A stretch of 64,000 nt of DNA from an uncultured Clostridium sp. (GCA_946414595.1 CAMKPE010000008.1:1152-65151), one strand, 5' to 3'; positions 2 through 37,534 are shown, counted from the first letter of the stretch. A program made the numbers and translations. The notes: a model not told the origin generated them from the sequence alone.

Positions 2-112
2 CCTGATATCATTGGACCACTATTATGGTTAAGGCAAAGAGAAGTTGTGCACTTTTCAAGATTTAAAGAACTTGTAGAAATATATGAAAAAGAAAAAAGT
101 GGATTAAATTAA
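2..112 (+). CDS. 3' end of an unidentified CDS (partial, continues upstream of the window)
   Basis: Frame 2 is open from nt 2 and ends ...FKELVEIYEKEKSGLN at TAA 110-112. A hairpin terminator follows. Only 36 aa are visible and carry no recognisable motif. Confidence 0.35.
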   Translation, partial: PDIIGPLLWLRQREVVHFSRFKELVEIYEKEKSGLN

Positions 113-125
113 TCCACTTTATTTT
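96..125. terminator. Bidirectional intrinsic terminator between convergent genes
   Basis: 10-bp stem aaagtggatt (96-105) / aatccacttt (111-120) with a 5-nt loop. An A-run lies upstream and a T-rich run downstream. Confidence 0.6.
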
Positions 126-837
126 AATAGAAATATAATATTTCGTTATTGATGACATCTTCCATTTCAAGTTTTCTAACTTTTTTATAAATACCATTAT
201 AAACGTCATCTGGTTGAACTTCGCTTTCGTTCATTGTAACAAACTCTATTTCATCATCTTTAACAATTATTCCATAACTCATTTCTTTAAAAGATTTAAC
301 TAAATAATTGTCTGCTGATTCAATAAATGAATTTTTTAAGTCTCCGTTCTTAGTAGTTATTATTACCATAACTTGTTTATCAGCTATAGGATACATCATA
401 ATTGTTCCATTATCATTTTGATATAACCCATTGTATTTGGAATCAAATATTTTACTATCACCATACCATGAATCAAATATATAATTTATCGTTACTTTTT
501 CTTCACTGCCTTCTTCTTTTATATATACTCCTGAAGGTATATTTTCATTATTTGATTCTAACTTAATATTATCGTCTTCTTTAGTAAATTTATAAGTATA
601 TTGAGCAACTTCTCCTGTTGCAACACCATCTTCAATATACGCAAGTCCATATAATTTATTGCTTCCAGTAAAATATATTTTCTCATCAGTATATTGATAA
701 ACGTTTATTACAACATCATCTTTTTTATAAATTCCTATATACTCAATTTTTTCTTTTTTGTTATTAAATAATAGTAATACTATTCCTGTTATTAATAAGA
801 CTGCACTTATTAGGATTACGATAATTGATTTTTTCAT
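124..837 (-). CDS. Hypothetical N-terminally membrane-anchored protein (237 aa)
   Basis: From the ORF track. MKKSIIVILISAVLLITGIVLLLF is a single N-terminal TM/signal anchor and the rest is hydrophilic. It lies 18 nt downstream of the pilin-like gene 856-3735. Confidence 0.6.
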   Translation of the reverse strand: MKKSIIVILISAVLLITGIVLLLFNNKKEKIEYIGIYKKDDVVINVYQYTDEKIYFTGSNKLYGLAYIEDGVATGEVAQYTYKFTKEDDNIKLESNNENIPSGVYIKEEGSEEKVTINYIFDSWYGDSKIFDSKYNGLYQNDNGTIMMYPIADKQVMVIITTKNGDLKNSFIESADNYLVKSFKEMSYGIIVKDDEIEFVTMNESEVQPDDVYNGIYKKVRKLEMEDVINNEILYFY

Positions 838-855: not shown

Positions 856-3735
856 CTATTTACATACTTGATGACATCTACATCCATACATTACGTGAGG
901 AGTTTGACATCTTTTTTCGTTATTACAACAGAAGTTTTTACATGAACCATCTGATCTACACCATGCTCCTTGATTTACATTACATGATGTAAGTGGTCTT
1001 GTTGACCAAGTATTTTCAACTTCCCATACCCAAGTACAACTTGCTGTACATTCTGATGATCCTGCTTCACTTTCTTCTCCTTCTGGACAGGCTACACAAC
1101 TAGCCCATCCTGACCCAGAGTATGTATTTGCTGGACAAGTACTACAACTATCTGATGAATTGTAATATGATTTATGTTTTGCTTTATAACTACCAGCGGA
1201 ACACCATGATGTGTCACTTCCTGTTGGGCTGTTTTTATATTTTCCATCTGGTACATTTATGTAACAACTTGTTGCAGCTCCTGCTTTGGCATCACTTGTA
1301 TATCCTGTTGGACATGCTGTTTGACTACATGCACCTTCTCCAGCATAATTTCCTGCTGTTGCATCAGAACATGAACTTGTTCCTCCATATGTTACATCAT
1401 GTTTTCCTTTATATGTTCCTGCTGCACACTTTGTTTCTGCACCTTTTGCATTTGCTACTTTATATCCACATGCTACTGATTTTACACAACCTGATTCAGC
1501 AGTTGTTCCTGCTCCTGCTTGGTATCCTGCTGGACATGCTGTACATGAACTTGTATTTCCATATGTTACTGTGTGAGCTCCTTTGTAAGTTCCTGTTCCG
1601 CATCCTTTCGCAGTTGTATCATTTGCTTTTTCAATGTAATTTCCTGCTGCAACGTTCTTTAGACATGCGCTTTGTGATGTCTTATTTGCCAATGCAGTTC
1701 CTTCTTGATATCCTGTTGGACATAAGCTACATGAACTTGTTTGACCATATGATACTACATGTGCAGTACTATAATATCCATCAGCACATACTTTCTTATC
1801 TTTTTTAGCTTCTTCTACAAAATATCCTGCAGCAACGTTCTTTTTACATTCTGCTTCAGTTCCAACTGGTGCACCATCTGTGTATCCTGTTGGACATGCT
1901 AAACAACTTGTACCTACAGAGTCTGTATATTCACCAGTTTTACATTGTTCATAAATTGCATACAATGTTACATCTGCACTTACAGTATGTGAAGTAATCT
2001 TTACTTTAGCATCTTTATCTGTATTCCATCCGATCATCTTCCATCCTGCTTTTCTTGCAGTTGGGTTTAAATCAGCTGATTCAGTTTCACGTTTAATTTC
2101 ACTTGTCTTTGTTGGACCTGTATCTCCACCATTTTTATCATAAGTTACTAAATAGTAATTTGAACTTGTTTGGAATGTATGTCCTGAGTGATCTGTTGCT
2201 TTCAAGTACCATGTTCCTGTTGAATCAACAGTACCAGTTCCAGTCCATTCACTTAAATAATTTAGGTTATCTCCACCTGAACTATTATTAGTTTTTCCAA
2301 AGTATACCTTAACTAACTTAGATGTAGCATCAGTACATTTTAATGATGCATGTCCAGTTATTGAACATGATGGTACTACTGTATCTTTTCTTACTTTAGT
2401 ACTACATGTTGCATAGTTTTGAGCTTTGTCTTCTACAAATCCATAGTACCAAATGAATTGACTTTCTTCAGTATGATTTAGTTCTAAGTTATTTGTTCTA
2501 CCTTGAGGTTTATATTCTTCATTACCTTTTCTTATTGCATTATATTCAATTCCACTCTTTGCTACTGCAATTGTGCTTTGTTGATCTTTTAATGTTCCAA
2601 AACTTATTTTAATATTTGAATGATACCATTCATTAGATCCAAGAGTACCTTCTTTTGTTAATGCACAAGTTGGTGCTGTTCTATCTATTCTAATTGTTAC
2701 TGCTGTTGTTACTTTACTAATGTTACCTTCATTGTCAACAACCCTGAATGCTATTTCTTCATTCATTTCTGTTCTATACTCTAAAGTACAATTTCCATTA
2801 CTATCTATATCATCACAAATTTTTTCCCATTTTCCACCTTTATTCCATTGGTATTGAGAAACTTTTTGTCCTGATTCTGAATAGAAATCAGATCCTGGAT
2901 GAAATACCATTGTTACTTCTTGAGCCCATTGTCCTGATGAATATGAAGTTGTAGCTGTTGTTTCAGTTACATCATCTTCTACTATTTTTGAAACATAAGT
3001 ATTTGTCTTTGTAAGAACTACTTCTGGTTCATTATTTTCATATACATGAACTCTTCTATCTACACTCTTATTATTATATTTATAAGTAACTGTATAAACA
3101 CCAACTTTTGATGTATCTACAACGTCAATGTTTTCTGGAAGTATTTGTGGAACTCCATCAACTCCATCTCCATCTATTATGTCTAGAACATTACCATTTC
3201 TATCTAATTTTGCTATTGATACAGATACTAATAATTTATCTCTTAATTTTTCTTGTGAAGTATTTTTGTAAACATAAGCATCATCAAAATGATCTATATC
3301 TGGTTGTATAGTTGATTGATCATCCCATGAGCTATCACAGTATTTATCTTCTAAATTTGAAAATGTATCTTCTGAACAAACTAAACAGGCATGATATATA
3401 TAATCATTTTTAGCAGCTTTTATTGCTATAACATAACTACTTCTATCACATTTATTTCCTGAATAATCTAAAATCTCATCGACATATGACCTTGATTCAA
3501 GAATTGATATAGGAACTTTTTGTGCTGCAAAAACAGAAGTTGGTCTATAGTTTCTATTATCTTCAAAGAATTCTTTTCCAGATTCAGTTAAAGTCCTTTC
3601 TAGAGAACTATAATAACTTTCTCTAAATTCTTGCATACTATTTGTATAAGTAATAATTGCTACTATAGAAATAATACCTAGTATAATTACTGCTGCTATT
3701 ATTTCTATTAAAGTAAATCCTTTTTTATTATTCAT
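856..3735 (-). CDS. Large modular protein with a prepilin-type (class III) N-terminus and cysteine-rich repeats, paralogue A (959 aa)
   Basis: N-terminus MNNKKG/FTLIEIIAAVIILGIISIVAI has G at -1, F at +1 and E at +5, followed by a hydrophobic helix. Next come Ig-like segments (GVYTVTYKY; VVDNEGNISKV..IDRTAPTC). One Listeria-Bacteroides-type repeat follows (YLVTYDKNGGD..GWKMIGWNT..VTLYAIYE). About 300 aa of ~50-aa Cys-rich repeats then follow (C..G.YKGAH.VTYG..SSC..CP.GY). The tail is Cys-dense (..CKNFCCNNEKRCQTPHVMYGCRCHQVCK). AGAGGTG lies just upstream of the ATG. Confidence 0.85.
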   Translation of the reverse strand: MNNKKGFTLIEIIAAVIILGIISIVAIITYTNSMQEFRESYYSSLERTLTESGKEFFEDNRNYRPTSVFAAQKVPISILESRSYVDEILDYSGNKCDRSSYVIAIKAAKNDYIYHACLVCSEDTFSNLEDKYCDSSWDDQSTIQPDIDHFDDAYVYKNTSQEKLRDKLLVSVSIAKLDRNGNVLDIIDGDGVDGVPQILPENIDVVDTSKVGVYTVTYKYNNKSVDRRVHVYENNEPEVVLTKTNTYVSKIVEDDVTETTATTSYSSGQWAQEVTMVFHPGSDFYSESGQKVSQYQWNKGGKWEKICDDIDSNGNCTLEYRTEMNEEIAFRVVDNEGNISKVTTAVTIRIDRTAPTCALTKEGTLGSNEWYHSNIKISFGTLKDQQSTIAVAKSGIEYNAIRKGNEEYKPQGRTNNLELNHTEESQFIWYYGFVEDKAQNYATCSTKVRKDTVVPSCSITGHASLKCTDATSKLVKVYFGKTNNSSGGDNLNYLSEWTGTGTVDSTGTWYLKATDHSGHTFQTSSNYYLVTYDKNGGDTGPTKTSEIKRETESADLNPTARKAGWKMIGWNTDKDAKVKITSHTVSADVTLYAIYEQCKTGEYTDSVGTSCLACPTGYTDGAPVGTEAECKKNVAAGYFVEEAKKDKKVCADGYYSTAHVVSYGQTSSCSLCPTGYQEGTALANKTSQSACLKNVAAGNYIEKANDTTAKGCGTGTYKGAHTVTYGNTSSCTACPAGYQAGAGTTAESGCVKSVACGYKVANAKGAETKCAAGTYKGKHDVTYGGTSSCSDATAGNYAGEGACSQTACPTGYTSDAKAGAATSCYINVPDGKYKNSPTGSDTSWCSAGSYKAKHKSYYNSSDSCSTCPANTYSGSGWASCVACPEGEESEAGSSECTASCTWVWEVENTWSTRPLTSCNVNQGAWCRSDGSCKNFCCNNEKRCQTPHVMYGCRCHQVCK

Positions 3736-3792
3736 AATACACCTCTATATTATTATACATATTAATTCTAACATACTTTAAAGTCAAATAAA

Positions 3793-3820
3793 ACAAAAAA
3801 ATAATGATATATAATCATTA
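3793..3820 (-). terminator. Intrinsic terminator after the 282-aa gene
   Basis: Stem taatgat/atcatta (3802-3808 / 3814-3820) overlaps the stop codon. A-run 3794-3801 gives a U-run on the minus strand. An extended -10-like TGTATAAT follows on the minus strand before the next gene. Confidence 0.5.
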
Positions 3821-4666
3821 CTTTTCATCTCTTATGATATATTGTTCTGTACTATACCAATAGTAGCTTCCATCGTCATTCTTTTTGTAAACATTTACAT
3901 ATGGTGTAGCAAATTCTCCATACTTTTCGAACAATTCATCTTCTGTGTATCCATGTATGTATCCTAAAGATTTTCCATTTTTTCTATTAAGAACATTTAT
4001 GTTAATACTACCTGATTCATCTTCTTCTTCATATACAAGATGTAGATGTTTAACATAAATATATAATATGTCATTTTTTTGTTCATATTTGTCTAATTTA
4101 ATAATATTTTTTTCATAACCAATTTCTGTTGTTGAATCTCCACAATAGCAATAATAGAATTCATTTTCTAAATAACAACTGCAATTGTCTTCATTAGAAA
4201 GAGTCTCTTTATCTTCTATTATGATGTCTTTTCCATACATGTTCTTTACTCTTTCAATAAACTTATCTTCTTTAAAATAGAAATTATTTGTAGTTACAAC
4301 TCCTTCTACATAGCAGTGGTCTTTAGAAAGAGTTCCTTCTTTCTTATCACATTCTTCTTTTGGAGTAGTATCCTTTTCACAACTTCCTTTTACATCATAT
4401 ATTCCCATAGTTGAATAGGCTGTATTTAATAATAACTGTGTTGGTACTTTATCTACTGTTACCATTTTTGTTTGAAAAACATTATATAAATCATCATTTA
4501 TAACTGGTATATAACTCAAATACTTTTCTACTTCTTCTTTTGTTACTTCTCTTTCTTTTTCCTTTTCATCCTCTTTATCACTAAATTTGATATTAGTGAA
4601 ACCATAGAATAATAATACAAGTGAAATTGCTATTAGTGATAATCCAATAATCTTATTTTTCTTCAT
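3818..4666 (-). CDS. Hypothetical N-terminally membrane-anchored, Cys-containing protein (282 aa)
   Basis: From the ORF track. It has the TM anchor IIGLSLIAISLVLLFYGF, a KE-rich linker and a Cys cluster (CSCYLENEFYYCYCG). RBS TAGGAGATT lies upstream. It is located between the two pilin-like paralogues. Confidence 0.65.
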   Translation of the reverse strand: MKKNKIIGLSLIAISLVLLFYGFTNIKFSDKEDEKEKEREVTKEEVEKYLSYIPVINDDLYNVFQTKMVTVDKVPTQLLLNTAYSTMGIYDVKGSCEKDTTPKEECDKKEGTLSKDHCYVEGVVTTNNFYFKEDKFIERVKNMYGKDIIIEDKETLSNEDNCSCYLENEFYYCYCGDSTTEIGYEKNIIKLDKYEQKNDILYIYVKHLHLVYEEEDESGSININVLNRKNGKSLGYIHGYTEDELFEKYGEFATPYVNVYKKNDDGSYYWYSTEQYIIRDEK

Positions 4667-4719
4667 ATTATAATCTCCTATTCTAATAAAAGTTTATCAT
4701 AATTATAAAATAATATCTA

Positions 4720-4752
4720 TAAAAAAAGATTTATATTTTTCAATATAAACCT
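4720..4752 (-). terminator. Intrinsic terminator after pilin-like paralogue B
   Basis: On the minus strand the stem is aggtttatatt / aatataaatct (one G-U pair), followed by a 7-nt U-run (plus-strand A-run 4721-4727). Confidence 0.6.
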
Positions 4753-4762
4753 TTTATTTTTA

Positions 4763-7700
4763 TTAACAGTTTGATGTAGTTGAACAACATCCTGAACTAT
4801 TTACACCATATGAAACAGATTTACTTCCTGTTGAACCATTAGTGTATTCAACACTTATTGTTGCAGAAATACCATTTGTTCCATTTTCGTTTCTAAATCT
4901 TAATATTATTCTACTTCCATCAGTGAAGAAGTTACCATTTGTACCAATACCAGTTTCTCCATAAGTTCCAGTATTATTAGATGCTGTCTTAGAGAAATAT
5001 GTTTTCTTTTGCCATCCACATGTTCCATCTGATGATTGCCATATATTTGTTGTTTGAGTATGAGCACTTGGATTTGGGCTAAATGTAACTGTTACTTTTC
5101 TAAATGTATATCCACTAGGTGGGTCAATATAGAATGCTTGAATTACACATGGGCAAGTAGAACCTGTACAAGTCGTACAAACAGTACTCATTGCTTCATC
5201 AGTTTCAGCTGCTAGACATGATCCACTTGGATGTCCACGTAACCTACGTAATGAAACTAATGGTTCTTTATTACTTAATTCCCAATGCGCATATACTGTT
5301 AAGTTTCCAGAAACTGTTGTACTTGCTGTTACTTGAGTTCCACCTGATGCTGCAGTCCACCATCCCTTGAAATCATATCCACTTCTTGATGGTGTACATA
5401 ATTCTCCCCAAGTACTTGCATATGTTCCACTCTTAGAAGTACATCCACTTCCATTATTATTATTGTAAGTTAATGTATATGTATTTGGTGTACATGAACT
5501 TGTATTTCCATATGCTACATTATGAGCTGATGAATGATATCCTGCTGGACATGCTACTGGTCCCCCCTTAGGGGTTGGAACATGATTATTTTCTGGTACG
5601 CTCTTTATACATCCACCTTCTGAAGAAGTTCCTGCTCCACTTCTATATCCATCTGGACATTGAGTTTGACTACAAGCACCTTGTGCTGCATAATATCCAG
5701 TACTTGCTGCTGTACATGAACTCTTTGCTCCATATGTTACAGTATGAGTTGCGCTATAACTTCCTCCAGCACATACAGTTTCAGCACCTTTTGCTGTATC
5801 TACTTTATATCCACATGCTACTGATTTAACGCATTTTGCTTCTTCAGTTGTTCCTGCTCCTGCTTGATATCCTGCTGGACATGATGTACATGAACTTTTA
5901 TTTCCATAAGTTACATTATGTGCTCCTTTATAAGTTCCTGTTCCACAACCTGTTGCATTTGCGTCATTTGCATTCTTTACAAAATTTCCCGCTGGAACGT
6001 TCTTTAGACATGTACTTTGTGCTTTTTTATTATCTACCGCTGTTCCATTTTGGTATCCTGTTGGACATAAGTTACATGAACTTTTTGCACCATATGTAAC
6101 TGAATGAGCTTCTTTGTAATATCCATTTGCACATTCTTTTGCATTTGCATCTTTTTCCTTTTCTACAAAATATCCTGCAGAAACACTCTTTCTACATTCT
6201 GCTTCTGTTCCTACTGGTGCTCCATCTTTATATCCTGTTGGACAAGCTAAACAGCTTGTTCCTACAGAGTCTGTATATTCACCAGTTTTACATTGTTCAT
6301 AAATTGCGTACAATGTAACATCTGCACTTACAGTATGTGATGTAATTGCTTTAGTAGCAGTTTTATTTGTATTCCATCCGATCATCTTCCATCCTGCTTT
6401 TCTTGCAGTTGGATTTAAATCAGCTGTTTCAGTTTCACGTTTAATTTCACTTGTTTTTGTTGGACCTGTATCTCCACCATTTTTATCGTAAGATACTAGG
6501 TAATAATTTGAACTTGTTTGGAATGTATATCCTGAATGATCTGTTGCTTTTAAGTACCATGTTCCTGTTGAATCAACAGTACCAGTTTCAGACCATGTTG
6601 CTTGATAATCTAATGCAGTACCTTCTGCACTATCATTTTCTTTACCAAAGTATACTTTTACTAGTTTTGAAGTAGCATCTGAACAGTTAAGTGATGCATG
6701 TCCAGTAATTGAACATGATGGCACTACTGTATCTTTTCTTACTTTAGCACTACATGTTGCATAGTTTTGTGCTTTATCTTCAACAAATCCATAATACCAA
6801 ACATATTGACTATCATCTTTATGAGTTTGTTCTAAACTATTTGTTCTATTTGATTGAACATATTTTTCTGTTTCAACTCTTACTGAATTAAACTCAATTC
6901 CACTCTTTGCTACTGCAATTAAGCTTTGTTGATCTTTTAATGTATCAAATTTAATCTTTATATTTGAATGATACCAGTCATTAGATCCTGTTGTACCTTC
7001 TTTTGTTAATGTACATATTGGTGCTGTTCTATCTATTCTTACTATAACACTTGTTGTTACTTTACTGATATTACCTTCAGTATCAACAACTCTGAATGCT
7101 ATTTCTTCATTCATTTCTGTTCTATAGTCAATAGTACAACTTCCATCTGCTGCTATATCATCACAAATTTTTTCCCATTTACCGCCTTTGTTCCATTGGT
7201 ATTGAGAAACTTTTTGTCCTGACTCTGAGTAGAAATTAGATCCTGCTGTAAATGACAATCTAACTTCTTGAGCCCATTGTCCTGATGAATATGAAGTAGT
7301 CTTTGTTGTTTCTGAAACTGTATCTCTATCAATAGTTGCTGCATATTTATTAGTCTTTGTAATAACTACTTCTGGTTCACTATTTTCATATACATGAACT
7401 CTTCTATCTACACTCTTATTATTGTATTTATAAGTTACTGTGTATACTCCTACTTTTGATGTATCAACTACATCAATGTTTTCTGGAAGGATTTGTGGAA
7501 CTCCATCAATTCCATCTCCACTAATTCTATCAATTACGTTACCAGCTCTATCAAATTTAGTTATAGAAACTGTTGCAAGTAATTTTTCTCTTAATTTTTC
7601 TTGTGAAGTATTTTTATAAACATAAGCATCTTCAAATTGGTCAATGTCCGGTCTTACTGTAGATGCATCATCCCATGAACTATCACAATATTTATCTTCT

Positions 7701-8083
7701 AAATTTGAGAATGTGTCTTCTGAACATACTAGACAGGTATAGTAAATGTAATCATTTTTAGCAGCCTTAATTGCTATAACATAACTACTTCTATCACATC
7801 TATTTCCTGAATAGTCTACAACCTCATCAATATATGATTTTGATTCTAGAATAGAAACAGGCACCTTTTGTGCAGTAAACACTGATGTAGGTCTATAGTT
7901 TCTATTATCCTCAAAGAACTCTTTTCCTGATTCAGTTAATGTTCTTTCTAAAGAAGTATAATAACTATCTCTAAATTCTTGCATACTATTTGTATAAGTT
8001 ATTACTGCAATAATTGAAATGATACCTAATATAATTACTGCTGCAATAATTTCAATTAAAGTAAAACCTTTTTTATTATTCAT
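4763..8083 (-). CDS. Large modular protein with a prepilin-type N-terminus and cysteine-rich repeats, paralogue B (1106 aa)
   Basis: It has the same MNNKKG/FTLIEIIAAVIILGIISIIAV N-terminus as paralogue A. It is collinear with paralogue A, and roughly four-fifths identical by eye, over the first ~640 aa. It has more Cys-rich repeats and a second Listeria-Bacteroides-type repeat (TYTLTYNNNNG..GYDFKGWW..LTVYAHWE). The C-terminal domain is distinct and ends ..SGCCSTTSNC. RBS GGAGGT lies upstream, and the start is 12 nt after the AAA+ gene stop. Confidence 0.85.
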   Translation of the reverse strand: MNNKKGFTLIEIIAAVIILGIISIIAVITYTNSMQEFRDSYYTSLERTLTESGKEFFEDNRNYRPTSVFTAQKVPVSILESKSYIDEVVDYSGNRCDRSSYVIAIKAAKNDYIYYTCLVCSEDTFSNLEDKYCDSSWDDASTVRPDIDQFEDAYVYKNTSQEKLREKLLATVSITKFDRAGNVIDRISGDGIDGVPQILPENIDVVDTSKVGVYTVTYKYNNKSVDRRVHVYENSEPEVVITKTNKYAATIDRDTVSETTKTTSYSSGQWAQEVRLSFTAGSNFYSESGQKVSQYQWNKGGKWEKICDDIAADGSCTIDYRTEMNEEIAFRVVDTEGNISKVTTSVIVRIDRTAPICTLTKEGTTGSNDWYHSNIKIKFDTLKDQQSLIAVAKSGIEFNSVRVETEKYVQSNRTNSLEQTHKDDSQYVWYYGFVEDKAQNYATCSAKVRKDTVVPSCSITGHASLNCSDATSKLVKVYFGKENDSAEGTALDYQATWSETGTVDSTGTWYLKATDHSGYTFQTSSNYYLVSYDKNGGDTGPTKTSEIKRETETADLNPTARKAGWKMIGWNTNKTATKAITSHTVSADVTLYAIYEQCKTGEYTDSVGTSCLACPTGYKDGAPVGTEAECRKSVSAGYFVEKEKDANAKECANGYYKEAHSVTYGAKSSCNLCPTGYQNGTAVDNKKAQSTCLKNVPAGNFVKNANDANATGCGTGTYKGAHNVTYGNKSSCTSCPAGYQAGAGTTEEAKCVKSVACGYKVDTAKGAETVCAGGSYSATHTVTYGAKSSCTAASTGYYAAQGACSQTQCPDGYRSGAGTSSEGGCIKSVPENNHVPTPKGGPVACPAGYHSSAHNVAYGNTSSCTPNTYTLTYNNNNGSGCTSKSGTYASTWGELCTPSRSGYDFKGWWTAASGGTQVTASTTVSGNLTVYAHWELSNKEPLVSLRRLRGHPSGSCLAAETDEAMSTVCTTCTGSTCPCVIQAFYIDPPSGYTFRKVTVTFSPNPSAHTQTTNIWQSSDGTCGWQKKTYFSKTASNNTGTYGETGIGTNGNFFTDGSRIILRFRNENGTNGISATISVEYTNGSTGSKSVSYGVNSSGCCSTTSNC

Positions 8084-8095: not shown

Positions 8096-10921
8096 TTATT
8101 CATAGAAATCATCAAAGCCACCGTCTTCGTCTTCTTTTCCGTCTTCTAGATTAAGATCGAACTGTGGTTTATTCTCTGAAACTGGTATTCCCATATATTT
8201 ATTTGAGTCTTCCTCTTTTATTTTACCGCTATTCAAATCGTTTAGATTAACAAAATCTCCACTTTTCATATCTTCATAGTAATCTTTGTTACTTGTTGGT
8301 ACTGCACTATTAGCTGCAGGAGCAATTGTATTCTCTTCTTTTTTAGCTGCTTGCTCAAGAATATCATTTTGGAAGTTTCCATCATCCTGTTGTGTTTGAT
8401 CACTATCATCTATGAATGTCCAATTTTTACCACTTGATGTTCCACCTTGATCAGGCATTCCTGATGTAGCAGGCATTCCTGATGTAGCAGGCATTCCATC
8501 AATAATTCCTGCTATTGGACTCATTCCATCATCGTAATTATTCATTGGGCTTGTTTGTAAGAAGTTTCCTTCTTCTTCAGGGATTTCTCTTACATCACTA
8601 ATAACTGTTTTAATATTTGATAGATTATTTAATTTATCAAATGTTGGGAATTCATCAACAATTTTTCCATTTTTAATTCTCATATTATCAGTAATTAGCT
8701 GTCCAAATATATCTACTCCATTATTACTTGGTTCATCCATCATTCCACCGCTGTTGTACATTGGCGCTCCAAATAAACTTTCACTTGGATATCCTGATTC
8801 ATTTGGATTGATATCTAAGAATGTCTTATTTGGCATACTATTACTTGGAATACCCATTGGATTATATAAATCTGGAACATTTTGATATGGGTCTTCTTTT
8901 GGACCATTATCATCATACATTGGTGCTCCAAAAATTGTTTCTACTGGCTCTTCTTGTTGTCTTGGTTCTTCAACATTTAAGAATCGATTATTTTGTGGAC
9001 CATTAGGCATATATCCATTATTCTGTGGTGGCATGTTTTGGTAACCTTGTTGTGGCATTCCACCATTTTGATATCGTCCATTTCCTCTGTTTGGATATTG
9101 TTGTGGTGGTCTTGGACCATTAGGCATATATCCATTATTCTGTGGTGGCATGTTTTGGTAACCTTGTTGTGGCATTCCACCATTTTGATATTGTCCATTT
9201 CCTCTATTTGGATATTGTCCTTGTGGTCTTGGACCATTTTGGTAATATCCATTTCCCTGTGGTGGCATGTTTTGATAATTTCCTTGAGGTCCTCCGTTAT
9301 ATCCATTCATGTTTTGATTGTTTGGATAATAACCATTATTTTGTGGAGGCATATTTGGATAATTTCCACCTTGGTTATTGTATTGTCTATTTTGCGGTAG
9401 GAAATCATTTGCAGGATTATTACTTTGATCATCTTCATCTTTTGAAAAGAAATTGCTGTATTTATCAAAATTTTGAGTGCTTATATCTTGTCTTACAGGT
9501 CTTCTTCTATCTTCTTGCATTATATTTCCTCCCTTCTTATGATTCTTTCTTGAAGAATTATAAGTATTATCTTGTGTATACTCACTTAATTCTTCTTCTA
9601 ATGTACTTTGAATTGGTTTACCAAGAAGTATATTATCGCTTACTCCCGGTTTTATTTCTTCTGTTACAACATATTTTGTTGGCATCTTTACTTTTTGTGG
9701 TTCATCAGGTTTAATAACCTCTAAGTCACCAGATAGTAACATGTCATCTAATTTGCTAGCATCTTGTGATCTGTTTATTTTTTCTTTTAATCCTTGAGAT
9801 ACTGCTGTTGAACCAACTATATCAGTATTTGAAATAATTGATTTAACAGGTCTATTTATTTTTTCTATATTTCTATCAATTATGCTTGGTTTTTTATCTA
9901 ACTTATCAACTTCACCTGTTTGTTCTGGTTCTGCTTGATTAGGAAGCCCTTCTTGTTCAGCCCTTGTTGGAGTATTATCTTGTCTCCATGCTTCAATTGG
10001 CTTCTCACCTTTTTCCTCTAACATAATGTCATTAAATGTTTGATCAAAATTTGGTAATTCTTTTTTAATAACATCTGGATAAATGTTTTTAGAATTCTCT
10101 ATTGCCTTTCTAACATCAAATATATCCATATATGGACGGTTATCATAAACCGTATATGAGAATGCTTGTTTAAGTAAAGTTAAACATACATCTGGATATC
10201 TTGATCCTAGTGCATATACTCTTTTGTATTCACTAGTTATATCTACTAGGAAACTCATTATTCTTTCTTGAATAAATGGAGTATATTTCATTTTTCTTCC
10301 AGTTTGTTTTTCAAACTTAGGAAGTGTTCCCATCATAATCTTTATTGTTTCATCTCTACTTGGTTCAGGAACTTCAACTTTTTGAAAACGTCTTGTAAAC
10401 GCTTTATCACGAAGAATATATCTTTCATACTCTTCTGTAGTTGTGGCACCAATTACTTTAATACTTCCACGTCCTAATCCCTCTTTGAAGATATTAGCGA
10501 AGTCAAGTGAAGAAGTATCAGTTGCTCCAATTAACATGTGAATTTCATCTATAAATAAAATTAATTTTTCTTTTGTTTTAAGTTCATCAATCATTTTTTG
10601 AACTTTACTTTCTCCACTAGGCATTGTACCTAATAGTGAAGCAGTTTTTATATTTACTATTGAGTATCCTTTTAAGGCGTCTGGCACGTCATCTTTTTGT
10701 AAGCGGTATGCAAGACCTTCAACAATAGCAGTTTTACCTATACCTGGCTTACCAATCAAAATGGCTGATTTTTCAGGAGTAAGAAGTATAAGAATAAGTT
10801 GTCTTATTTGCTCGTCACGACCAATAGCTGGATTTGTGATGTATTCGTCTTTAGTGATATCAGTACCATAACGCTCTAAGACACTAAAATTGGCTTCGAA
10901 TTCTAACGTTTTCTCATCCAT
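8096..10921 (-). CDS. ClpA/ClpB-family D1-type AAA+ ATPase (single AAA+ module) with a long Q/N/G/P/Y-rich low-complexity region and an acidic C-terminus (941 aa)
   Basis: Motifs match Clp D1 domains: IGRDEQIRQLILIL, Walker A GKPGIGKTAIVEGLAYRL, Walker B LILFIDEIHMLIGA, IGATTTEEYERYILRDKAFTRRFQKVEVPEPS. No second AAA+ module is present. Residues ~500-640 are almost exclusively N, Q, G, P, Y, M and R. Confidence 0.8.
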   Translation of the reverse strand: MDEKTLEFEANFSVLERYGTDITKDEYITNPAIGRDEQIRQLILILLTPEKSAILIGKPGIGKTAIVEGLAYRLQKDDVPDALKGYSIVNIKTASLLGTMPSGESKVQKMIDELKTKEKLILFIDEIHMLIGATDTSSLDFANIFKEGLGRGSIKVIGATTTEEYERYILRDKAFTRRFQKVEVPEPSRDETIKIMMGTLPKFEKQTGRKMKYTPFIQERIMSFLVDITSEYKRVYALGSRYPDVCLTLLKQAFSYTVYDNRPYMDIFDVRKAIENSKNIYPDVIKKELPNFDQTFNDIMLEEKGEKPIEAWRQDNTPTRAEQEGLPNQAEPEQTGEVDKLDKKPSIIDRNIEKINRPVKSIISNTDIVGSTAVSQGLKEKINRSQDASKLDDMLLSGDLEVIKPDEPQKVKMPTKYVVTEEIKPGVSDNILLGKPIQSTLEEELSEYTQDNTYNSSRKNHKKGGNIMQEDRRRPVRQDISTQNFDKYSNFFSKDEDDQSNNPANDFLPQNRQYNNQGGNYPNMPPQNNGYYPNNQNMNGYNGGPQGNYQNMPPQGNGYYQNGPRPQGQYPNRGNGQYQNGGMPQQGYQNMPPQNNGYMPNGPRPPQQYPNRGNGRYQNGGMPQQGYQNMPPQNNGYMPNGPQNNRFLNVEEPRQQEEPVETIFGAPMYDDNGPKEDPYQNVPDLYNPMGIPSNSMPNKTFLDINPNESGYPSESLFGAPMYNSGGMMDEPSNNGVDIFGQLITDNMRIKNGKIVDEFPTFDKLNNLSNIKTVISDVREIPEEEGNFLQTSPMNNYDDGMSPIAGIIDGMPATSGMPATSGMPDQGGTSSGKNWTFIDDSDQTQQDDGNFQNDILEQAAKKEENTIAPAANSAVPTSNKDYYEDMKSGDFVNLNDLNSGKIKEEDSNKYMGIPVSENKPQFDLNLEDGKEDEDGGFDDFYE
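8985..9440 (-). repeat. Coding low-complexity / tandem repeat region (Q/N-rich) inside the AAA+ gene
   Basis: Two 117-bp (39-aa) tandem units lie at 8997-9113 and 9114-9230. Their first ~78 nt are identical (ggaccattaggcatatatccattattctgtggtggcatgttttggtaaccttgttgtggcattccaccattttgata). More degenerate copies lie upstream. A separate 18-bp repeat (GMPATS x2.5) lies at ~8452-8500. Confidence 0.85.
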
Positions 10922-23054: not shown

Positions 23055-26000
23055 TTATTTAATAATAATATATTTATAAACCTCTCCAATATATGTATTG
23101 TTGTCATATAGGGAGAATACAATCTTGTAAGTACCTGATCTTAAGTTGTCTTTTAAATATAATACCTGTGACATAGTAGCTTGTGGATCATCGAATACTA
23201 AGTATAATTTTTCTACATTTGTATCACTAAAATTATTAGTAAAGAAATCTTTAAAGTCTACTAAGTGATATATACTTGAATATACTTCATCGTAGTCTCT
23301 TCTATATAGAGATACTCTGATATTTGGATTTAATAATCCACTTGAGAATTGGAAGTTAAATGCCATTGCATTAGTACCATTTTGTGTTTCTCCAGTTGTT
23401 TTATCCACAATTAAGTCTTCCGAATCAACGACTGCTTTTAATCCATAAATAGTGTTTTTAACTGTAAATGGAATTGTAACGCTATCAGATGATGTTAACC
23501 CATAATAGATTCCATCTGGAGATCCAAATGACTCGATTAACATCTTATAATTTCCTGATGCTAAGTTACTTCCTTCAGTGTTAATTGTGATGTTTGATGA
23601 TACGTTTGCAATACGTTCTGCAACGTTAATTCTTACCGTTCCATCAAATCTAGGATAATATGTTGTATTACCAAGAGTATAGGAAATTCCCATTATACTT
23701 GGACCATTTACAACGTTATCATTAGAGTCTAGGATTGATATTTTAATACCTGATCTATAATCATAGAAGTTTGTATCTATAACTGGGTTATTATTAACTT
23801 TTTGTTGAACGAAGTTTGTCGTAACATTTAACATTACTTCTTCTCCTATGTATACTTCATCAGTCGACATCGTTCCATCAACATCAATAATTGAATCTTT
23901 ATTAGCGTATAAGTTATAGAACAATTGCTGTTGCTGGACACCAATTACCGATAGAATTATTTCATCATCAGAACTTCGAAGCTCTAACAACAAGTATTTT
24001 TCTATGGCATCTTCTTCTATACCTGCTTCTTTAAAGTCTACAATGAAGATAAACTCTTCTTCTGCAATACCGAGGTCATCATCGTAATATAACAGGTTCT
24101 TCGTTGCATCATTATAATGGTTATTTGGATTATCACTACCCATTTTAATGAATTTAGAAAGTGGATATGCGACATCTCCATTAGCTTGTAATTCTGCTTG
24201 TTTATTTACAAAGTCATCATGAGTTACAACATAGTAATAATATTCAGGAGTTGTTCCACTTAATAAGTCAATCATTGTAATCTTTGTATTTTCTGGGAAG
24301 TTATAAGTAGATGCTAGAACTCTATGATATCCTTCTCTATAAATTGTTTCATCTTTTTCTACGAATAATGAATAGTATGTTGTAAAGGCACTCTTTGAAG
24401 TTATATTAACTACACCTGGTGCAAACATTTCATATACTTTTCCGGTTGTAATTGTTCCTTCATAGTCATCTGTCGTATATAACGCTCTTGATATATTAAC
24501 ATTAATATTAATTCTTTTTACTTCGTTATTTAAATCATCAATTGGAATAATTGCTACCATTGAAATGGTTGCAGTTCCCATGCTTCCAGCTGTCTCCAAA
24601 TTCTTAGAGTGGTATAGATAGAATAACAGTGTTGGAACTGTATTTGAGTTTTCACTCTTATAATTAATTGTTCCATCAAAGTAAGATTCATTAGTTAAGA
24701 ATGTTGTCTTACCTATTGTTAACCATCCATTATCACTACTCTTCATTACAAGAGCCATTCTATTATCAGCAAGTTCATGAGTCTCAGCAATTCTTGGTAT
24801 TTCATCTTTTCCAACAAGTTCAACTTCACTATTTAAGTCATTATAGTTGAATCCTAAAACAGAGAACGTTGTATTAGCTTGTGAGAAGTTAATTAATGGT
24901 AACTCATAAGTTCCAAGTGTAGAATATTTAGATGCTGTTAAATCTATTTCTATAGAAGTAACTTGATCTCCAACAACCCACATATAATAGTTAGAATCTT
25001 CTGGTGTTGGAATTATGTATCCAACAAATATTTTATCTGTCTCAGTTTTATTTGGATAATTTGTATAGAATCCATCTTCTTCATAATTATGGTTTGTTTT
25101 ATGAAGTCCTAGTACATAACTACCTTTAGTAAAGTGTACTATTTCTGAAGATGGTACTGTAGTAGTATTTGTATAGTCTGTATTATACATAGCTGGATAT
25201 ACTTTACCATTTCTATCATAAGTAAACATTCCAAAGAATGTCATTCCACTAACTTCTCCGTATGCTGTTATGTTTTCGTTTGTTGCTATGTTAATATTCT
25301 TTCCTTCATAAACATATAATTTGTTATTAACGTTTCTTGATTGTATTCCATCTTCATCTATTTCTACTGCTTCTTTAACAACAGTATTTCCAGTTTTTAA
25401 TCCACTAGAGAATTTCTTAACTAAGTTAGTACCGTTCTTTAAGTATATAACTGAGTTATTAACTAATGCGATTTCATCCAATCTACTTAATGAGAACAAT
25501 ACATCAGAGTATTCGTTTGTTCTGTCTGTTGCTCCAATAAGTTCGATTACTGAATTCTCAAGAGTTACTGTAGATGCTCTTTGAATTGATACATTTGTTT
25601 TGTAATTTGCTTCAGTTCCATAGTTTTTAATTAAGATGTTACTATAACCACTTGTACTTGAAGCATTACCACTTCCAAATATAGATCCGTGTATATCAAA
25701 TACATTATGGCTATTAGCATCTATATTAATTGTTATTCCTGTCGTAACACTTATGAATGAGAAGTCATAAATTTCTGATCCTGAAGCATTGGCTTCTCCT
25801 CCACCAAATACTGTTCCAGTAATATCAATATCACCTTTTGTTAATGTATTTTCTGTTACTACATCCTTACCAATATTTACATTTACTGTTCCGTAAAGTA
25901 CTGAAGTATTAGCTCCTCCATATACATTACCTCCACAAGTAAGTCCTGCAATATTTACTAAACTTGTTGAGTTATTAGCCTCAGGTGTTCCTGTTGCAGC

Positions 26001-29000
26001 GGCATTTCCTCCACCAAATACGTGGTTTGCAACTGACGTTGTTCCACCAACATTTAATACTGTATTTCCATGTACTATGGCAGTAGTTCCGTTTCCTCCT
26101 GCAAATAAGTTTGCTCCTAAAGTACTATTTTGAACAAATACATCTGTATCATGTCCAACTATTCCTAGGTTTCCTCCACCGAAGACATTTCCACTTATTG
26201 TCGCATTAACAATTCTTAATACTGAATTATTATCAACTGCAGCTTGGTTTCCTCCTCCATAGACTTGACCATTAATAATTGCATTTTCAATATTTGTATT
26301 TGTTCCTGTTGTATCAGCGTAGTTTCCTCCACCATAGACATAAGTTACTTGCCCTGCTTTTAGATCTACGTTAGCGCTTATTGTTCTTCCTCCACGGTTA
26401 TTACCACCGAATATTTTATTAACAATTACACTGCTGTTATTTGCTGGTATACTTACATGGCTTTCTTGAACTGCTCCAGCCATATTAGATCCACCATAAA
26501 CATTTGTAATTCTTGATACACCTTTTAAAATTACATTTGCAGTATCTACAGAAGCTTGGTTTCCTCCACCATAGATATTAGAAATTGTAGATGCTGTTTT
26601 ATTAATTGTTACATTACTTGTTGTAGAGTCAGCATAATTTCCTCCTCCATAAATATCTGTAACATTTCCATCATTTACAGTGACATGAGTTGTTGTTGTA
26701 GTTCCACCTTGATTATTACCACCATAAATATTTGTAGTTGTTCCTCCTGCTACTATGATATTAGAAACAGGAACTGTACCACTTTGATTTGATCCTCCAT
26801 AAATTGAACCAACTGTGGCATTATTTTGATTAACACTCGTACTTACTGTTATTCCGGCTTCATTTCCTCCACCATAAACATCAGTTATATTTCCACTATT
26901 TAAGTTAATTATTGTTGTGTCTGTTTCTGCAACATTTCCTCCACCAAAGATAGTAGCAATTGTTCCTCCACCTGTTGTTATCTTTGTTGTATTAGTTTTT
27001 CCACCTAAGTTGTTACCACCATAGATTGTTGTGGCATTACCACTTGATGTTGTTATATTAGATTCTACAACTGTACCACTTTGATTTGATCCACCAAATA
27101 TCGTTGTTACAGTTGATCCCTGTAATGTTACATTTGTTTTATTTGTAATACCTGCTTGGTTTCCTCCACCATATACATTTGCAATAGTTGCACCATTTAA
27201 AGTAAGGTTTGTTGTATCTGTTTCTGCAACATTTCCTCCACCATAAATAGTATCTATATTTCCACCATTTATAGTTAAGTTTGAAGTTAGAGTTTTACCT
27301 CCTAAATTATTTCCTCCATAGATATTTGTTGCAGTTCCGCTTGATGTTGTTATGTATGATGCTGTAACATTTCCTGAGTTATTACTTCCTCCAAAAAGGT
27401 TTGTTACTGTTGCACCATTTAATATTGTATTAGTACTTGATGTAACACCTGCTTGGTTTCCTCCTGCATAAGCATTTGGAATTGTTCCTCCATTTAGGTA
27501 TAAATGTGTAGTTCCAGTTGTTGCAACATTTCCTCCACCATAAACAGCGCTCAATGTTCCACCTGTTATTGTTACATTAGAAGTTGTTGTTGTTCCTCCT
27601 AAGTTATTACCACCATATATAGTTGTAGCAGAGCCACTGCTTGAAGTTACATTTGCTGTTGTAACTGTACCACTTTCATTAGAACCACCATATATTGTAG
27701 TAGCATTAGCTCCTTGTAAATGAACATTAGTAGTTGTAGCATTAGCAAGGTTTCCTCCACCATAAACATTAGTTATAGTACCGCCATTTAAATATACATG
27801 GCTTGTATTTATTGGTGCATAATTTCCTCCACCAAATACATTGGTAGTATTTCCACCATTTATATAAACATTTATATTTCCATTTGGAGTTCCCTTAACA
27901 TCATTTCCTCCAAATACATCATTAATAGTTCCATTATTAACTGTTACAGTTACGTTTCCTCTAACATATGGAGTTGTTGAATTATCACCTTGTCCTCCAC
28001 CAAAAACAGAACCAGATATACTACCATTATTAATTGTTATAGAAGTATTACCACTAGCACTACCATTTGATGAATTGCTGTTAACAATTCCTAAAGCACT
28101 TCCTCCATAAATATTTCCTTGAATAATTGGAGTATTAGTAATACCATTTCTACCTATAGTTATATCAATATTATTAGATACAAATGTTGGAGCACCTTTA
28201 CCTCCACCATAAACGTTTCCAGTAATTGTACCACCAATAATATCCATATCAACTGATCCATACACTTCACCTGTAGTATTAGATCCTCCGTAGACATTTC
28301 CAATTGTTCCACCACTTATATCAATATCAATTACACTGCTTGATTTATATTCATTTTTACTAAATCCTGCTGATTTAGATCCACCATATACATTGCCTAT
28401 TGTTCCACTTAATATTTCTATTTTAGCAGTTGATGATTGTGTAGTTTGTGTTCCTGTACTACCAAAGTTTCCTCCACCATATACACCATCAGTTATAGTT
28501 GCTCCATTGATAATTACATGTGAATTTTTAACAGATCCTCTTGTTGGATATCCATCAGCACCTCCACCAGCTCCAAATACAGAACCAGCTTCAACATCAT
28601 TTATAGAACCTGTTTGATCACCAACTACTGCAGTACCTCCAACATATACAATGGTATCTCCATCTATAATACCTATATTATTTCCTGTTCCTCCATTACT
28701 ATTTGATCCACCTAAAACACTATAGTGGATAACTCCTCCAGAAATATTAATAATTCTATTTCCGTATGTTGTATTTTGAGTAGCTCCTCCATAAATCTGC
28801 CTTACGTCTCCCCCACTCATACCAATATAAACCGCATTTGCTCCATTGTTATTATTATATCTATAACCAGATCCCCCAAGAATTATGTTAATTGAACCAC
28901 CTTCAATTTTAATTCCATTAGTTGCATGTGTAGTAACTGAAGTACCTCTTCCGCTTATGTAAGCTCCAGCACCATCAGGATCATTACTTGGTGTACCATC

Positions 29001-31003: not shown

Positions 31004-32011
31004 CTATGATGGATTAACTGTTAGTTGTAAATCAAATTGAATATCATCATATGAGGCATCATTTTCACAATCTACATCTTGTCCTTCAATCCACATGTAT
31101 ATTCTCATTTTTGTGATTCCACTTTCTAATGTAAATACAGGTACATATGCTGTGAAATCATTTCTTGTGTAATAATCAATATTTACTGTTTTAAATTTTG
31201 TTGGAAAATATGCTCCTTTAGCATTTCTTAGTAATACGTTATCTGCTTTTGCTATTTCCTCTATTATTCCATCATATATTATTCTATTTGCATTTTCTGT
31301 TTGTGTTATTATTCCATACAAGTTGTTAGCGTGGTTAACTGCTGCTGTTGTATGAATATCATAGTTTGGTTCCCAAGAGTAAACTGTGTTATTTGTTGCT
31401 CCTTTCAAACTTTGTATTTCACTTAAATCAGTTCCTGCTGGAACAGTTCCCTCATTTACAAATACTATTCTTGTAGCATTTGCAATTCCTTTTCCTGTTT
31501 CGTTATTCATATAAGTTACTTTTGAATTACTTGTTAAGTATAATTGTGTATCACTACTTACTTTAAAGAACAAATCAAATACGATAAATTTTCCATCATT
31601 TGATGATCCATTACCTTCTGTTTCAATACTTCTTGTACTTGTTAGTATGTAATCACCAGTTGCATTGTTATCTGTTGTTCCGTAATACATTTTTAGGTAT
31701 CCAGTTGTTGTATCAACTTCAAGTCCACTTGATACTGGCTCTAATGTATAAGGTATTTGGTTAACACTAGTTGGGTAAGTAGTCGCATGTACGTTTGTTA
31801 TATCTTCTGGTGTAATAATTGATTTCCAATTTGTACCATCAGCAGATATTTCTATACCTCCACTTGCTGCTACGTGAACGTTGATTGTATTTACTGTTAC
31901 TATTCTGTTTGATGTGAACCATGCATAAGTTGTTGTTGAAAGCATTGTTAGTGTAAACAAAAATAGTACCAATAAGTAAATGCGTCTTAGTTTTCTATTC
32001 ATTACTATCAT
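31004..32011 (-). CDS. SipW-type-signal exported protein, ~335-360 aa, paralogue of 39545-40576
   Basis: The signal ends ..LSTTTYAWFTSN. Shared blocks with the paralogue are GIEISADGTNWKSI, NQIPYTLEPVS, GKFIVFDLFFKV, WEPNYDIHTTAAVNHA and GITKMRIYMWIEGQDVDCEN. The ORF is open to 32092. I favour ATG 32011, which has GGTGG 9 nt upstream; 32002 and 32020 are also possible. Confidence 0.8.
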   Translation of the reverse strand: MIVMNRKLRRIYLLVLFLFTLTMLSTTTYAWFTSNRIVTVNTINVHVAASGGIEISADGTNWKSIITPEDITNVHATTYPTSVNQIPYTLEPVSSGLEVDTTTGYLKMYYGTTDNNATGDYILTSTRSIETEGNGSSNDGKFIVFDLFFKVSSDTQLYLTSNSKVTYMNNETGKGIANATRIVFVNEGTVPAGTDLSEIQSLKGATNNTVYSWEPNYDIHTTAAVNHANNLYGIITQTENANRIIYDGIIEEIAKADNVLLRNAKGAYFPTKFKTVNIDYYTRNDFTAYVPVFTLESGITKMRIYMWIEGQDVDCENDASYDDIQFDLQLTVNPS

Positions 32012-32786
32012 TTTGTTCATCCACCTTTTCTTCTTCGCTTTCCTTACTTTCTTCAATCTTTTGTAATTCGTTTGGATTAATTCTTTCTTCACGGATATTC
32101 ATATGCATTTTTATATCTCCACCAATAAGTGAATTAACAGTATCAGGATCATCTCCTTCAATCCATACGACTATTGTTATTCTATCTGGTGAGTTTGGAG
32201 CAAGTGTTTTTCTTTCTTCCAAAACAGCAATATATTCTTCGCTTCTTCTATTTCCTTCGTAGAAAGGTTTAGTATCAGGTTCAGCTTCACCTGTATCAGC
32301 ATTCTTTTTAGCATATACAGTAGGTTCACCATTTAAGTAGATCATTATTCTTATTCCTTCATCTACTCTTTTAATAACGTCATCAATTACTACTTCATAC
32401 CAATAGTCTACTGCAACATTACTAATGTTTTCTACATAGAATGTATAAGCTATATAGTTTTGTCCATTATGTGAACCTTCTTTTTCTGTATCTATATCAG
32501 CTGGAATCCATTTAATAGAAATGTTATCCATATAAGGCATTTCATCAGCATATAATTTTCTTTTAATGTCTCTATCTTCTTTAAAGTCGTAGATAACTAA
32601 ACTACTATCACGAGTTGCATCTTTATCAAGTTGAATTACAAATCTACCACCTTTAAAAATAACAGTTAGGATAACGAAAATTGTTGTTAACACACCCAAA
32701 AGAACTAAACTAGCTATTTTAGCCACTTTAGCTGTCTTTTTTCTCTTATTTAATTTCTCAGCAGTAAGCAATACATCTTTAGCCAT
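31995..32786 (-). CDS. Membrane-anchored exported protein related to the locus subunits (263 aa)
   Basis: TM anchor IASLVLLGVLTTIFVILTVIF. The C-terminal block IVVWIEGDDPDTVNSLIGGDIKMHM resembles YMWIEGQDVDCEN of the ~360-aa paralogues. The tail is acidic. The start is moved to MAKDVLL (ATG 32786), which is preceded by AGGAG. Confidence 0.7.
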   Translation of the reverse strand: MAKDVLLTAEKLNKRKKTAKVAKIASLVLLGVLTTIFVILTVIFKGGRFVIQLDKDATRDSSLVIYDFKEDRDIKRKLYADEMPYMDNISIKWIPADIDTEKEGSHNGQNYIAYTFYVENISNVAVDYWYEVVIDDVIKRVDEGIRIMIYLNGEPTVYAKKNADTGEAEPDTKPFYEGNRRSEEYIAVLEERKTLAPNSPDRITIVVWIEGDDPDTVNSLIGGDIKMHMNIREERINPNELQKIEESKESEEEKVDEQNDSNE

Positions 32787-32909
32787 ATTAGTCTCCTGTT
32801 TTCTTATCCTATATACGTAAAATTTTATCATATTTTGCCTATTTTTACAACAATTTGGCTTTAAAAATAATCTTTATGATATACTTAATTTAAAGTAGGA
32901 GGTGTTTGT

Positions 32910-34137: not shown

Positions 34138-34139
34138 AA

Positions 34140-34766: not shown

Positions 34767-34773
34767 ATTACCT

Positions 34774-37524: not shown

Positions 37525-37534
37525 ACTTCACCAC

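Follow-up and report, generated by a model that had tools for sequence, protein, structure and literature searches.

Modular pilins, defined as proteins that join an N-terminal pilin signature to at least one domain not specific to type IV pilus biology, are an established and widespread class, for which a 2021 survey recorded more than 1200 proteins in 264 architectures, the most extreme of 860 residues (PMC8179133). Those studied so far are all encoded inside pilus operons, and they explain how simple type IV filaments gain new functions. The present analysis concerns two tandem genes for larger proteins in a 64,000-nucleotide (nt) stretch of DNA from an uncultured Clostridium sp. (GCA_946414595.1 CAMKPE010000008.1:1152-65151), referred to here in its whole length as the window. 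An initial annotation, made from the sequence alone, had described tandem open reading frames (ORFs) of 959 and 1106 amino acids (aa) with immunoglobulin (Ig)-like, Listeria-Bacteroides, and Cys-rich parts. Pfam agrees with this description, as Big_3 and Flg_new score above their cut-offs in both proteins, which contain 41 and 44 Cys residues. With N_methyl at the N-terminus in addition, both fall within the definition of a modular pilin. It is fairly probable that the two genes encode giant modular pilins that resemble adhesins, are processed by a prepilin peptidase, and are displayed by machinery encoded elsewhere.

The upstream gene (P0001; 4763..8083; 1106 aa) and the downstream gene (P0002; 856..3735; 959 aa) both lie on the minus strand, as do all parts of these genes and all neighboring features placed by coordinates up to the AAA+ gene described below. 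The upstream gene has a GGAGG ribosome-binding site 7 nt 5′ of its ATG, and the downstream gene repeats its architecture to approximately aa 820. Both ORFs share the N-terminus MNNKKGFTLIEIIAAVIILGIIS, in which MNNKKG/FTLIEIIAAVIILGIIS places Gly at −1, Phe at +1, and Glu at +5. Cleavage is predicted between G6 and F7, such that the mature N-terminal peptide would begin FTLIEIIAAVIILG and the processed proteins would comprise 953 and 1100 residues. The cut-off of the Pfam N_methyl profile (PF07963) is 21.2 bits, and the window pair reaches 28.1 and 28.3; for TIGR02532, with a cut-off of 16.3, the scores are 24.4 and 25.3 bits. The textbook class III signal that the initial annotation read in both ORFs is borne out by both profiles. 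By these profiles, the class III signal peptide and the hydrophobic α1N helix occupy aa 1-27 of each protein (8003..8083 in the upstream copy and 3655..3735 in the downstream copy).

The signal is the first part of what is predicted to be a small pilin module (aa 1-135; 7679..8083 in the upstream copy). An AlphaFold model of aa 1-160, built with the family alignment (predicted local distance difference test, pLDDT, of 88), has a helix at residues 9-59 and strands at 71-75, 101-108, and 111-117, which corresponds to the predicted pilin topology of a long helix and then a small β-sheet. When the family profile is compared with the sequences in the PDB, type IV pilins are the only matches at E < 0.01, all through the N-terminal helix; these include geopilin (2.6e-9), MshA, PilA, Streptococcus sanguinis PilE1, Neisseria PilE, and PpdD. 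Assignment to a particular known pilin was rejected in two cases. For the ComGE model (NF041013), whose cut-off is 49 bits, the scores are 19.2 and 17.9 and the match is limited to aa 2-36, and the match to PpdD is confined to the helix and falls far under its cut-off.

The window proteins belong to a larger family. Among 5.8 billion clusters searched, there were 73 matches, 63 of which share the N-terminal ~460 residues. The length of these core homologs is between 609 and 1915 aa, with a median of 904, and all 63 come from metagenomes or metagenome-assembled genomes (MAGs) labeled Bacilli, Erysipelotrichaceae, or similar. As judged from the homologs recovered, the family is confined to uncultured, low-GC Bacilli of the gut and rumen and is multi-copy, with tandem arrays of two to three copies per locus being frequent. 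The motif GFT[LI][IVT]E is present in every core homolog (63/63), usually behind a leader of 4-5 residues before the Gly, so that orthologs lacking the G/F..E motif, which the initial annotation had named as an argument against its own reading, were not encountered among them. Across the 56 homologs that were aligned, G6, F7, T8, and E11 are invariant; further invariant positions of the family are Y42, L79, D90, Y114, and C120, while C96, C117, and C133 are nearly so. Because the motif is kept in all core homologs and the ratio of nonsynonymous to synonymous divergence (dN/dS) between the two window genes is 0.05-0.07 over codons 1-150, the class III match is not a chance resemblance, and the substitution pattern indicates that the signal is under strong purifying selection throughout the family. 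Two rare variants, P0205 and P0223, have Ala for Gly at −1 (MKKNNKAFTLIE) or Gln for Glu at +5 (GITLVQ), and represent natural test cases for the requirements of cleavage and docking.

An exhaustive profile search of 1.84 billion representatives, from which the best 150 matches were listed, extends this picture. Approximately 90 of the 150 carry the class III motif and range from 184 to 2296 aa, and the remaining ~60, which reach 7221 aa, are non-pilin proteins with only the Ig-like repeats in common. No source gives the family a name, though one NCBI record calls a member an 'InlB B-repeat-containing protein'.

Behind the pilin module lies the stalk core that defines the family (aa 136-460; 6704..7678 in the upstream copy), in which Big_3 is joined by more Ig-like β-sandwich domains, as delimited by the end of family homology, AlphaFold, and Foldseek. 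The homology common to all members extends to approximately aa 455-470. In the upstream copy, the core is followed by a β domain and the first Listeria-Bacteroides (Flg_new) repeat (aa 461-596; 6296..6703), as defined by Pfam and AlphaFold, and then by a Cys-rich array (aa 597-868; 5480..6295) recognized from its Cys positions and CPxGY motifs. This array is assigned to the Ephrin_rec_like/GCC2_GCC3 type because the homolog P0013 contains six Ephrin_rec_like repeats (1.5e-23). The C-terminus is specific to each copy. In the upstream protein, Pfam, alignment, and AlphaFold place here a second Flg_new repeat (aa 869-933) and a C-terminal domain modeled with low confidence (together 4766..5479), whereas aa 871-959 of the downstream protein differ and consist of 15% Cys. 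The AlphaFold model of the full-length 1106-aa protein has a pLDDT above 90 over the β-sandwich chain (aa 140-600), moderate confidence in the Cys-rich repeats, and low confidence in the last ~170 residues; approximately 9-12 β domains are predicted in the stalk. The best Foldseek matches of this model are the stalks of the giant adhesins GhpA and SiiE (1e-8 to 1e-6).

Depending on the member, homology to the window protein ends at approximately residue 460, 613, 733, 792, 865, or 940, and the C-terminal modules found within the family include Flg_new, Ephrin_rec_like, MBG_2, DUF285, and a terminal pretoxin HINT domain. On comparison of these architectures, the family is a product of module shuffling onto a constant N-terminal core. 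The HINT domain occurs in P0013 alone (L329:703-4395), at aa 1085-1223 of 1230 (6.1e-14), with no toxin domain behind it and a Wzx-like flippase gene next, which suggests that self-cleaving or effector-type variants may exist within the family. The window proteins end in ...CCSTTSNC and ...CHQVCK, and an LPxT[GASN] sorting motif is absent from the last 60 residues of all 73 matches of the family search. A sortase-anchored LPXTG surface protein was rejected, as no family member has a sorting signal.

The two window genes lie in direct orientation, 1 kb apart, and the homologous part spans 2.46 kb. Over aa 1-600, the window copies are each other's nearest relatives, with 83% identity against at most 76% to any database protein. 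Because the copies are mutually nearest at 83%, the pair points to a tandem duplication that is specific to this lineage and no longer recent. Between the two proteins, BLASTP gives 76% identity across 874 aa. The DNA-level alignment that the initial annotation had proposed for mapping the breakpoint shows homology from the ATG to approximately codon 800-820, with unrelated C-termini beyond, and places the breakpoint near position 5620 (upstream copy) and position 1275 (downstream copy). The copies are therefore collinear, as first described, but their similarity does not stop near 640 aa. Nor is the 5′ sequence, given earlier as ~1.9 kb of near-identity, close to identical: over codons 1-820 the nucleotide identity is 83%, with a dS of 0.49 and a dN of 0.13, and the longest exact match between the genes is 47 nt. 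In the diverged tails, dN/dS is at least 1. A low dS of 0.19-0.24 at codons 501-600 (~6284..6583 and ~1936..2235), versus 0.67-1.3 at codons 1-150, could be the result of later gene conversion or of a local constraint on the DNA.

Machinery suited to such proteins was found in related genomes. At one family locus (L013, in MAG CASFCU01), genes for a T2SSF protein (1.2e-48) and a prepilin peptidase (A24_N_bact 7.9e-34; Peptidase_A24 1e-14) are located 5.5 kb upstream of the giant pilin. Used as a lineage-specific probe, this peptidase retrieved 42 loci, and in the Bacilli lineage pilC lies nearly always directly 5′ of pilD. The pilC-pilD pair and a core family member occur together in four genomes, CASFCU01, CALVZC01, CAZTRB01, and CANREL01. 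On the complete chromosome OZ006981.1 (1.31 Mb), pilCD is located at ~159 kb. In addition, a family-like pilin gene begins 65 nt 3′ of pilD at locus L103, and at L128 the gene directly 3′ of pilD encodes a 553-aa class III protein that has one Ig-like domain in common with the core. In six sister-clade loci, a PilB-type ATPase of 436-457 aa (T2SSE 1.8e-128) adjoins pilCD together with class III proteins of ~120-190 aa. In MAGs CALVPR01 and CALVSZ01, the ATPase is on another contig than pilCD, and non-adjacency therefore does not mean absence.

Two of the loci from sister-clade Bacilli MAGs (L110:8162-13192 and L119:80-4177) present a very compact type IV filament cluster of pilC, pilD, and a divergently transcribed gene for a short PilB-type ATPase. 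This ATPase has 436-457 aa and the Walker A motif GATGSGKST, and the class III proteins of these clusters range from 116 to 519 aa, the 519-aa one having a Gly-rich C-terminal half. Most ATPases of the lineage contain QDPN in place of the canonical QDPD. A published TANB77 'pilin' was considered and set aside, since it belongs to a Tad-type cluster in Clostridia that is unrelated (PMC11680825).

If the window proteins are giant pilins displayed by such a machine, the precursor would be inserted into the membrane, and a PilD/ComC-type peptidase encoded elsewhere would cut after G6 and probably N-methylate F7. A compact type IV filament machine, consisting of a PilB-like ATPase and PilC, would extract the protein by its α1N helix, and the protein would dock into a short pilus or pseudopilus built from the small pilins of the lineage (~165 aa), whose genes adjoin that of the ATPase. 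Docking would push the stalk through the cell wall and present the variable tip for binding, and tandem duplication with diverged tips would yield two binding specificities. In type IV filaments, Glu5 bridges to the N-terminus of the neighboring subunit and is required for docking rather than for cleavage, and the capping subunit alone lacks it (PMC10191384). Because E+5 is invariant in the family, the giant pilin would probably sit beneath another subunit and not cap the filament. The conserved Cys-bearing head and the retained pilC-pilD genes point the same way, against a helix reused as an anchor alone. Of the initial proposal of giant modular pilins on a pilus encoded elsewhere, the first half is thus supported by the motif in all 63 core homologs, the PDB profile matches, and AlphaFold, and the second half is plausible in view of pilC-pilD in four family-bearing genomes.

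Several results weigh against this interpretation. As the initial annotation had noticed for PilB/ComGA, PilC/ComGB, and prepilin peptidase, the window contains no such gene: when all ORFs of 110 aa or more in the 64 kb were scanned with Pfam, neither T2SSE nor T2SSF nor Peptidase_A24 domains were detected. No pilus genes were found within 10 kb of about 30 family loci, where the neighbors are housekeeping genes such as der, mraZ-pbp, def, recD2, spoIVA, and glycosyltransferase genes; in a positive control with the same scan, ordinary pilin loci of Deltaproteobacteria nearly always had a T2SSE gene within 5 kb. A scan of metagenomes added more family loci, with no machinery among them. Among the matches listed, T2SSE is tied to no core-family genome and occurs in sister clades only. 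The best 80 loci of a T2SSE profile scan of genomes were all sister-clade genes at least 69% identical, and the matches listed from a search of 5.8 billion proteins were all at least 80% identical, with none tied to a family-bearing genome. A degenerate DNA pattern for QDPN[IV]IM[IV]GEIRD gave at least 120 matches and was not lineage-specific. The isolated pilin module had no significant Foldseek match in the PDB (best E 1.0), a comparison in which models of long-helix pilins match poorly and many PDB pilins lack α1N. Because of this, the case for the pilin fold is based on the topology modeled by AlphaFold and on the homology of the helix. Moreover, a bulky subunit of ~1000 aa has, to our knowledge, never been shown within a type IV filament.

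The same data can be read as describing an adhesin that uses the class III signal for insertion, is cleaved by PilD, and remains anchored by α1N without filament assembly, its stalk spanning the wall. Such an arrangement is possible but on balance doubtful. It would account for the scattering of family genes among housekeeping genes, with no adjoining machinery in ~30 loci, and for the occurrence of pilC-pilD without an adjacent ATPase in the clade that holds the family, none being tied to those genomes among the matches listed. The predicted stalk of ~9-12 β domains could plausibly cross a Gram-positive wall alone, and there is a precedent for non-pilin cargo with class III signals (PMC3047682). 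However, reuse of the helix solely as an anchor is disfavored because G−1, F+1, and especially E+5 are strictly conserved, the last in 63/63 homologs and as a requirement of docking, not of cleavage (PMC10191384). The helix is also followed by a conserved globular head, predicted to be that of a pilin, with conserved cysteines. An intact PilC platform is retained beside pilD in family-bearing genomes, and we know of no role for PilC outside filament assembly. The separation of the ATPase from pilCD in two related MAGs further reduces the weight of its non-adjacency.

Two other explanations address the variable C-termini. That the proteins are carriers of polymorphic effectors or toxins, with the N-terminal core as a trafficking module and the small gene downstream as an immunity or partner gene, is very unlikely. 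The C-termini of the window pair are unrelated past approximately codon 820 with dN/dS of at least 1, the small downstream genes of the two copies are likewise unrelated, C-terminal modules are shuffled across the family, and P0013 ends in its pretoxin HINT domain, all of which speak for such carriers. On the other hand, Pfam finds no toxin or HINT domain in either window protein. P0013 itself lacks a toxin domain behind HINT, and its next gene encodes a flippase rather than a small partner. The downstream proteins are extracytoplasmic and membrane-anchored, the partners of P0001 and its ortholog P0006 are homologous although the last ~170 residues of these two have no detectable similarity, and the identifiable C-terminal modules (Flg_new, Ephrin_rec_like, MBG_2, and DUF285) are of binding or repeat type. 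The other explanation builds on the cassette-like variation raised in the initial annotation: the direct repeats would recombine or undergo gene conversion and thereby swap C-terminal modules for phase or antigenic variation. The direct orientation at a distance of 1 kb with 2.46 kb of shared homology, the patchy dS, the fact that the window copies are each other's nearest relatives, the frequency of arrays of two to three copies, and the varying end-point of homology among members would all suit such a cassette. Yet the nucleotide identity of only 83%, the longest exact run of 47 nt, and the overall dS of 0.49 mark the duplication as old and make the pair poorly suited to frequent homologous recombination. 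Neither chimeras nor deletions were seen, the window genes themselves being absent from other database records. Module shuffling is therefore visible at the level of the family, but active switching is not evidenced, and a recombination cassette at this locus is decidedly unlikely.

If the giant pilins are displayed on filaments, they would raise the size ceiling for subunits that a type IV machine can handle; if they are not in filaments, they would parallel, in bacteria, the archaeal use of class III signals on non-pilin surface proteins. The family extends the modular-pilin principle to 1000-2000 residues and combines a conserved Ig-like stalk with exchangeable tips and multiple copies in a genome. 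Its hosts are abundant, uncultured Bacilli of the gut and rumen with otherwise very small genomes, and its members are candidate host- or glycan-binding adhesins of a poorly known fraction of the microbiota. A broader and rather improbable proposal is that, in a clade of gut Bacilli with small genomes, the type IV pilin pathway has become a general means of displaying giant adhesins from a multigene family, and perhaps also effectors processed by HINT. Scattered around the chromosome, dozens of orphan two-gene units, each a giant pilin with a fast-evolving anchored partner, would be served by stand-alone pilC-pilD, maybe without a conventional extension ATPase or a long filament. If true, display by stand-alone pilC-pilD would be a pilin-based analog of sortase/LPXTG or autotransporter display.

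Both pilin genes are followed by a gene for a small N-terminally anchored protein, and the two such ORFs noted at the outset do exist. The one 3′ of the upstream copy (3818..4666) encodes a 282-aa protein that has a membrane anchor at its N-terminus and matches no Pfam family. The other (124..837; 237 aa) starts 18 nt 3′ of the downstream pilin gene. The two partners are unrelated in sequence. For the 282-aa partner, no relatives were detectable in a word-indexed search, and a weak homolog (24% identity, E 4e-7) lies 3′ of the ortholog P0006 in L001. Among 17 non-redundant, complete family genes of at least 500 aa, 11 are followed, at a spacing of −15 to +97 nt, by a gene for an N-anchored protein of 160-390 aa. 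These small proteins were rejected as a single family, since weak pairwise homology was found among some only. The small membrane-anchored protein probably acts as an accessory factor specific to the pilin copy that it follows.

Each copy had initially been credited with a terminator of its own. This holds for the upstream pilin gene, which has a likely intrinsic terminator on its 3′ side (4719..4753), an AT-rich hairpin with U7 (−11.6 kcal/mol, z −5.2). The downstream pilin gene has none of its own. The strong one follows the 237-aa gene instead; located at 96..120, with an 11-bp stem and a T-run (−11.3 kcal/mol, z −4.7), it closes the two-gene unit. Since the gap between these two genes is only 18 nt and unstructured, they are probably co-transcribed. 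A weak hairpin with U7 lies 3′ of the 282-aa gene (3794..3821; −5.9 kcal/mol, z −2.5), and a sigma-70-like promoter match (TTGACT, 17-nt spacer, TAATAT) is located 5′ of the downstream copy (3759..3787), as a match to consensus only. No Rfam family was found in the window. On the other side, the stop codon of an AAA+ gene (8096..10921) lies 12 nt from the ATG of the upstream copy at 8083, the spacing originally reported. The encoded protein has 941 aa, with a ClpB/ClpA nucleotide-binding domain 1-like AAA+ domain in aa 7-211 only. Its tail of ~700 residues is of low complexity, rich in Q, N, P, G, and Y, with internal repeats and a prion-like composition. The AAA+ gene was rejected as a functional partner of the giant pilins, as it is absent from every other family locus.

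Elsewhere in the window, an apparent SipW/TasA-type surface-fiber cluster occupies 31004..42980 on the minus strand, together with 23055..30989. It includes two genes similar to S26 signal peptidases (34140..34766 and 40715..41845), and the SipW-type motif TTTYAWFT(S/A)N or a close variant is present in three proteins (31004..32092, 33514..34137, and 39545..40642). A 2644-aa N-anchored protein without a Pfam match adjoins this cluster. A gene for a HerA/DUF87-type ATPase (44398..46152, minus strand) lies between ffh (43080..44387) and ftsY (46463..47656).

Of the described systems, PilB (with a vWA domain) and PilC (with a lectin domain) of S. sanguinis resemble the window proteins in their class III signal, small pilin module, grafted non-pilin modules, and monoderm Bacillota host, as well as in a presumed adhesive role and an exposed position on the filament. 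The window proteins differ in having no sequence homology to them beyond α1N and in their size, with 953 and 1100 residues predicted after processing and up to 1915-2296 aa in the family, against about 50 kDa for PilB. The genes for PilB and PilC belong to the pil locus, and both proteins have been demonstrated in filaments, whereas the window proteins are known from their genes alone. Unlike modular pilins, the family also has a conserved Ig-like stalk core of ~325 aa behind the pilin module, and its genes occur in multiple copies away from pilus operons, usually with a gene for a small anchored protein as companion. CofB and TcpB of type IVb pili and GspK of type II secretion likewise add domains to a pilin module and have been proposed to initiate or cap the filament. 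However, they measure about 300-520 aa and are single-copy proteins encoded in the machinery operon, and a capping subunit has no Glu5 (PMC10191384), whereas E+5 is invariant in the family. Closer in host are the Com minor pilins (ComGD-GG), also of Bacilli, which share the short leader, F+1, E+5, and the weak NCBIfam ComGE matches; in contrast to the window family, they have about 100-150 aa and are encoded in the comG operon.

The stalk has its nearest counterparts outside pilin biology. Salmonella SiiE, Aureispira GhpA, and large adhesion proteins of the RTX type also use a chain of Ig-like β-sandwich domains as a stalk with a distal binding region, and the same Ig-like repeat recurs in non-pilin proteins of 2000-7200 aa, but these adhesins rely on type I secretion or other anchoring routes and have neither a class III signal nor a pilin module. 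In the bindosome of Sulfolobus, large functional proteins, there sugar-binding proteins, are made with a pilin-type signal and require an enzyme of the prepilin-peptidase type along with a small assembly system whose genes lie elsewhere (PMC3047682), as would be the case here; that system belongs to another domain of life, has no homologous globular part, and carries solute-binding proteins rather than Ig-like stalks as cargo. Thus, the principle is already known from modular pilins, and what is new in this family is its size, its multi-domain stalk core, its copy number, its location outside pilus operons, and its recurrent partner gene.

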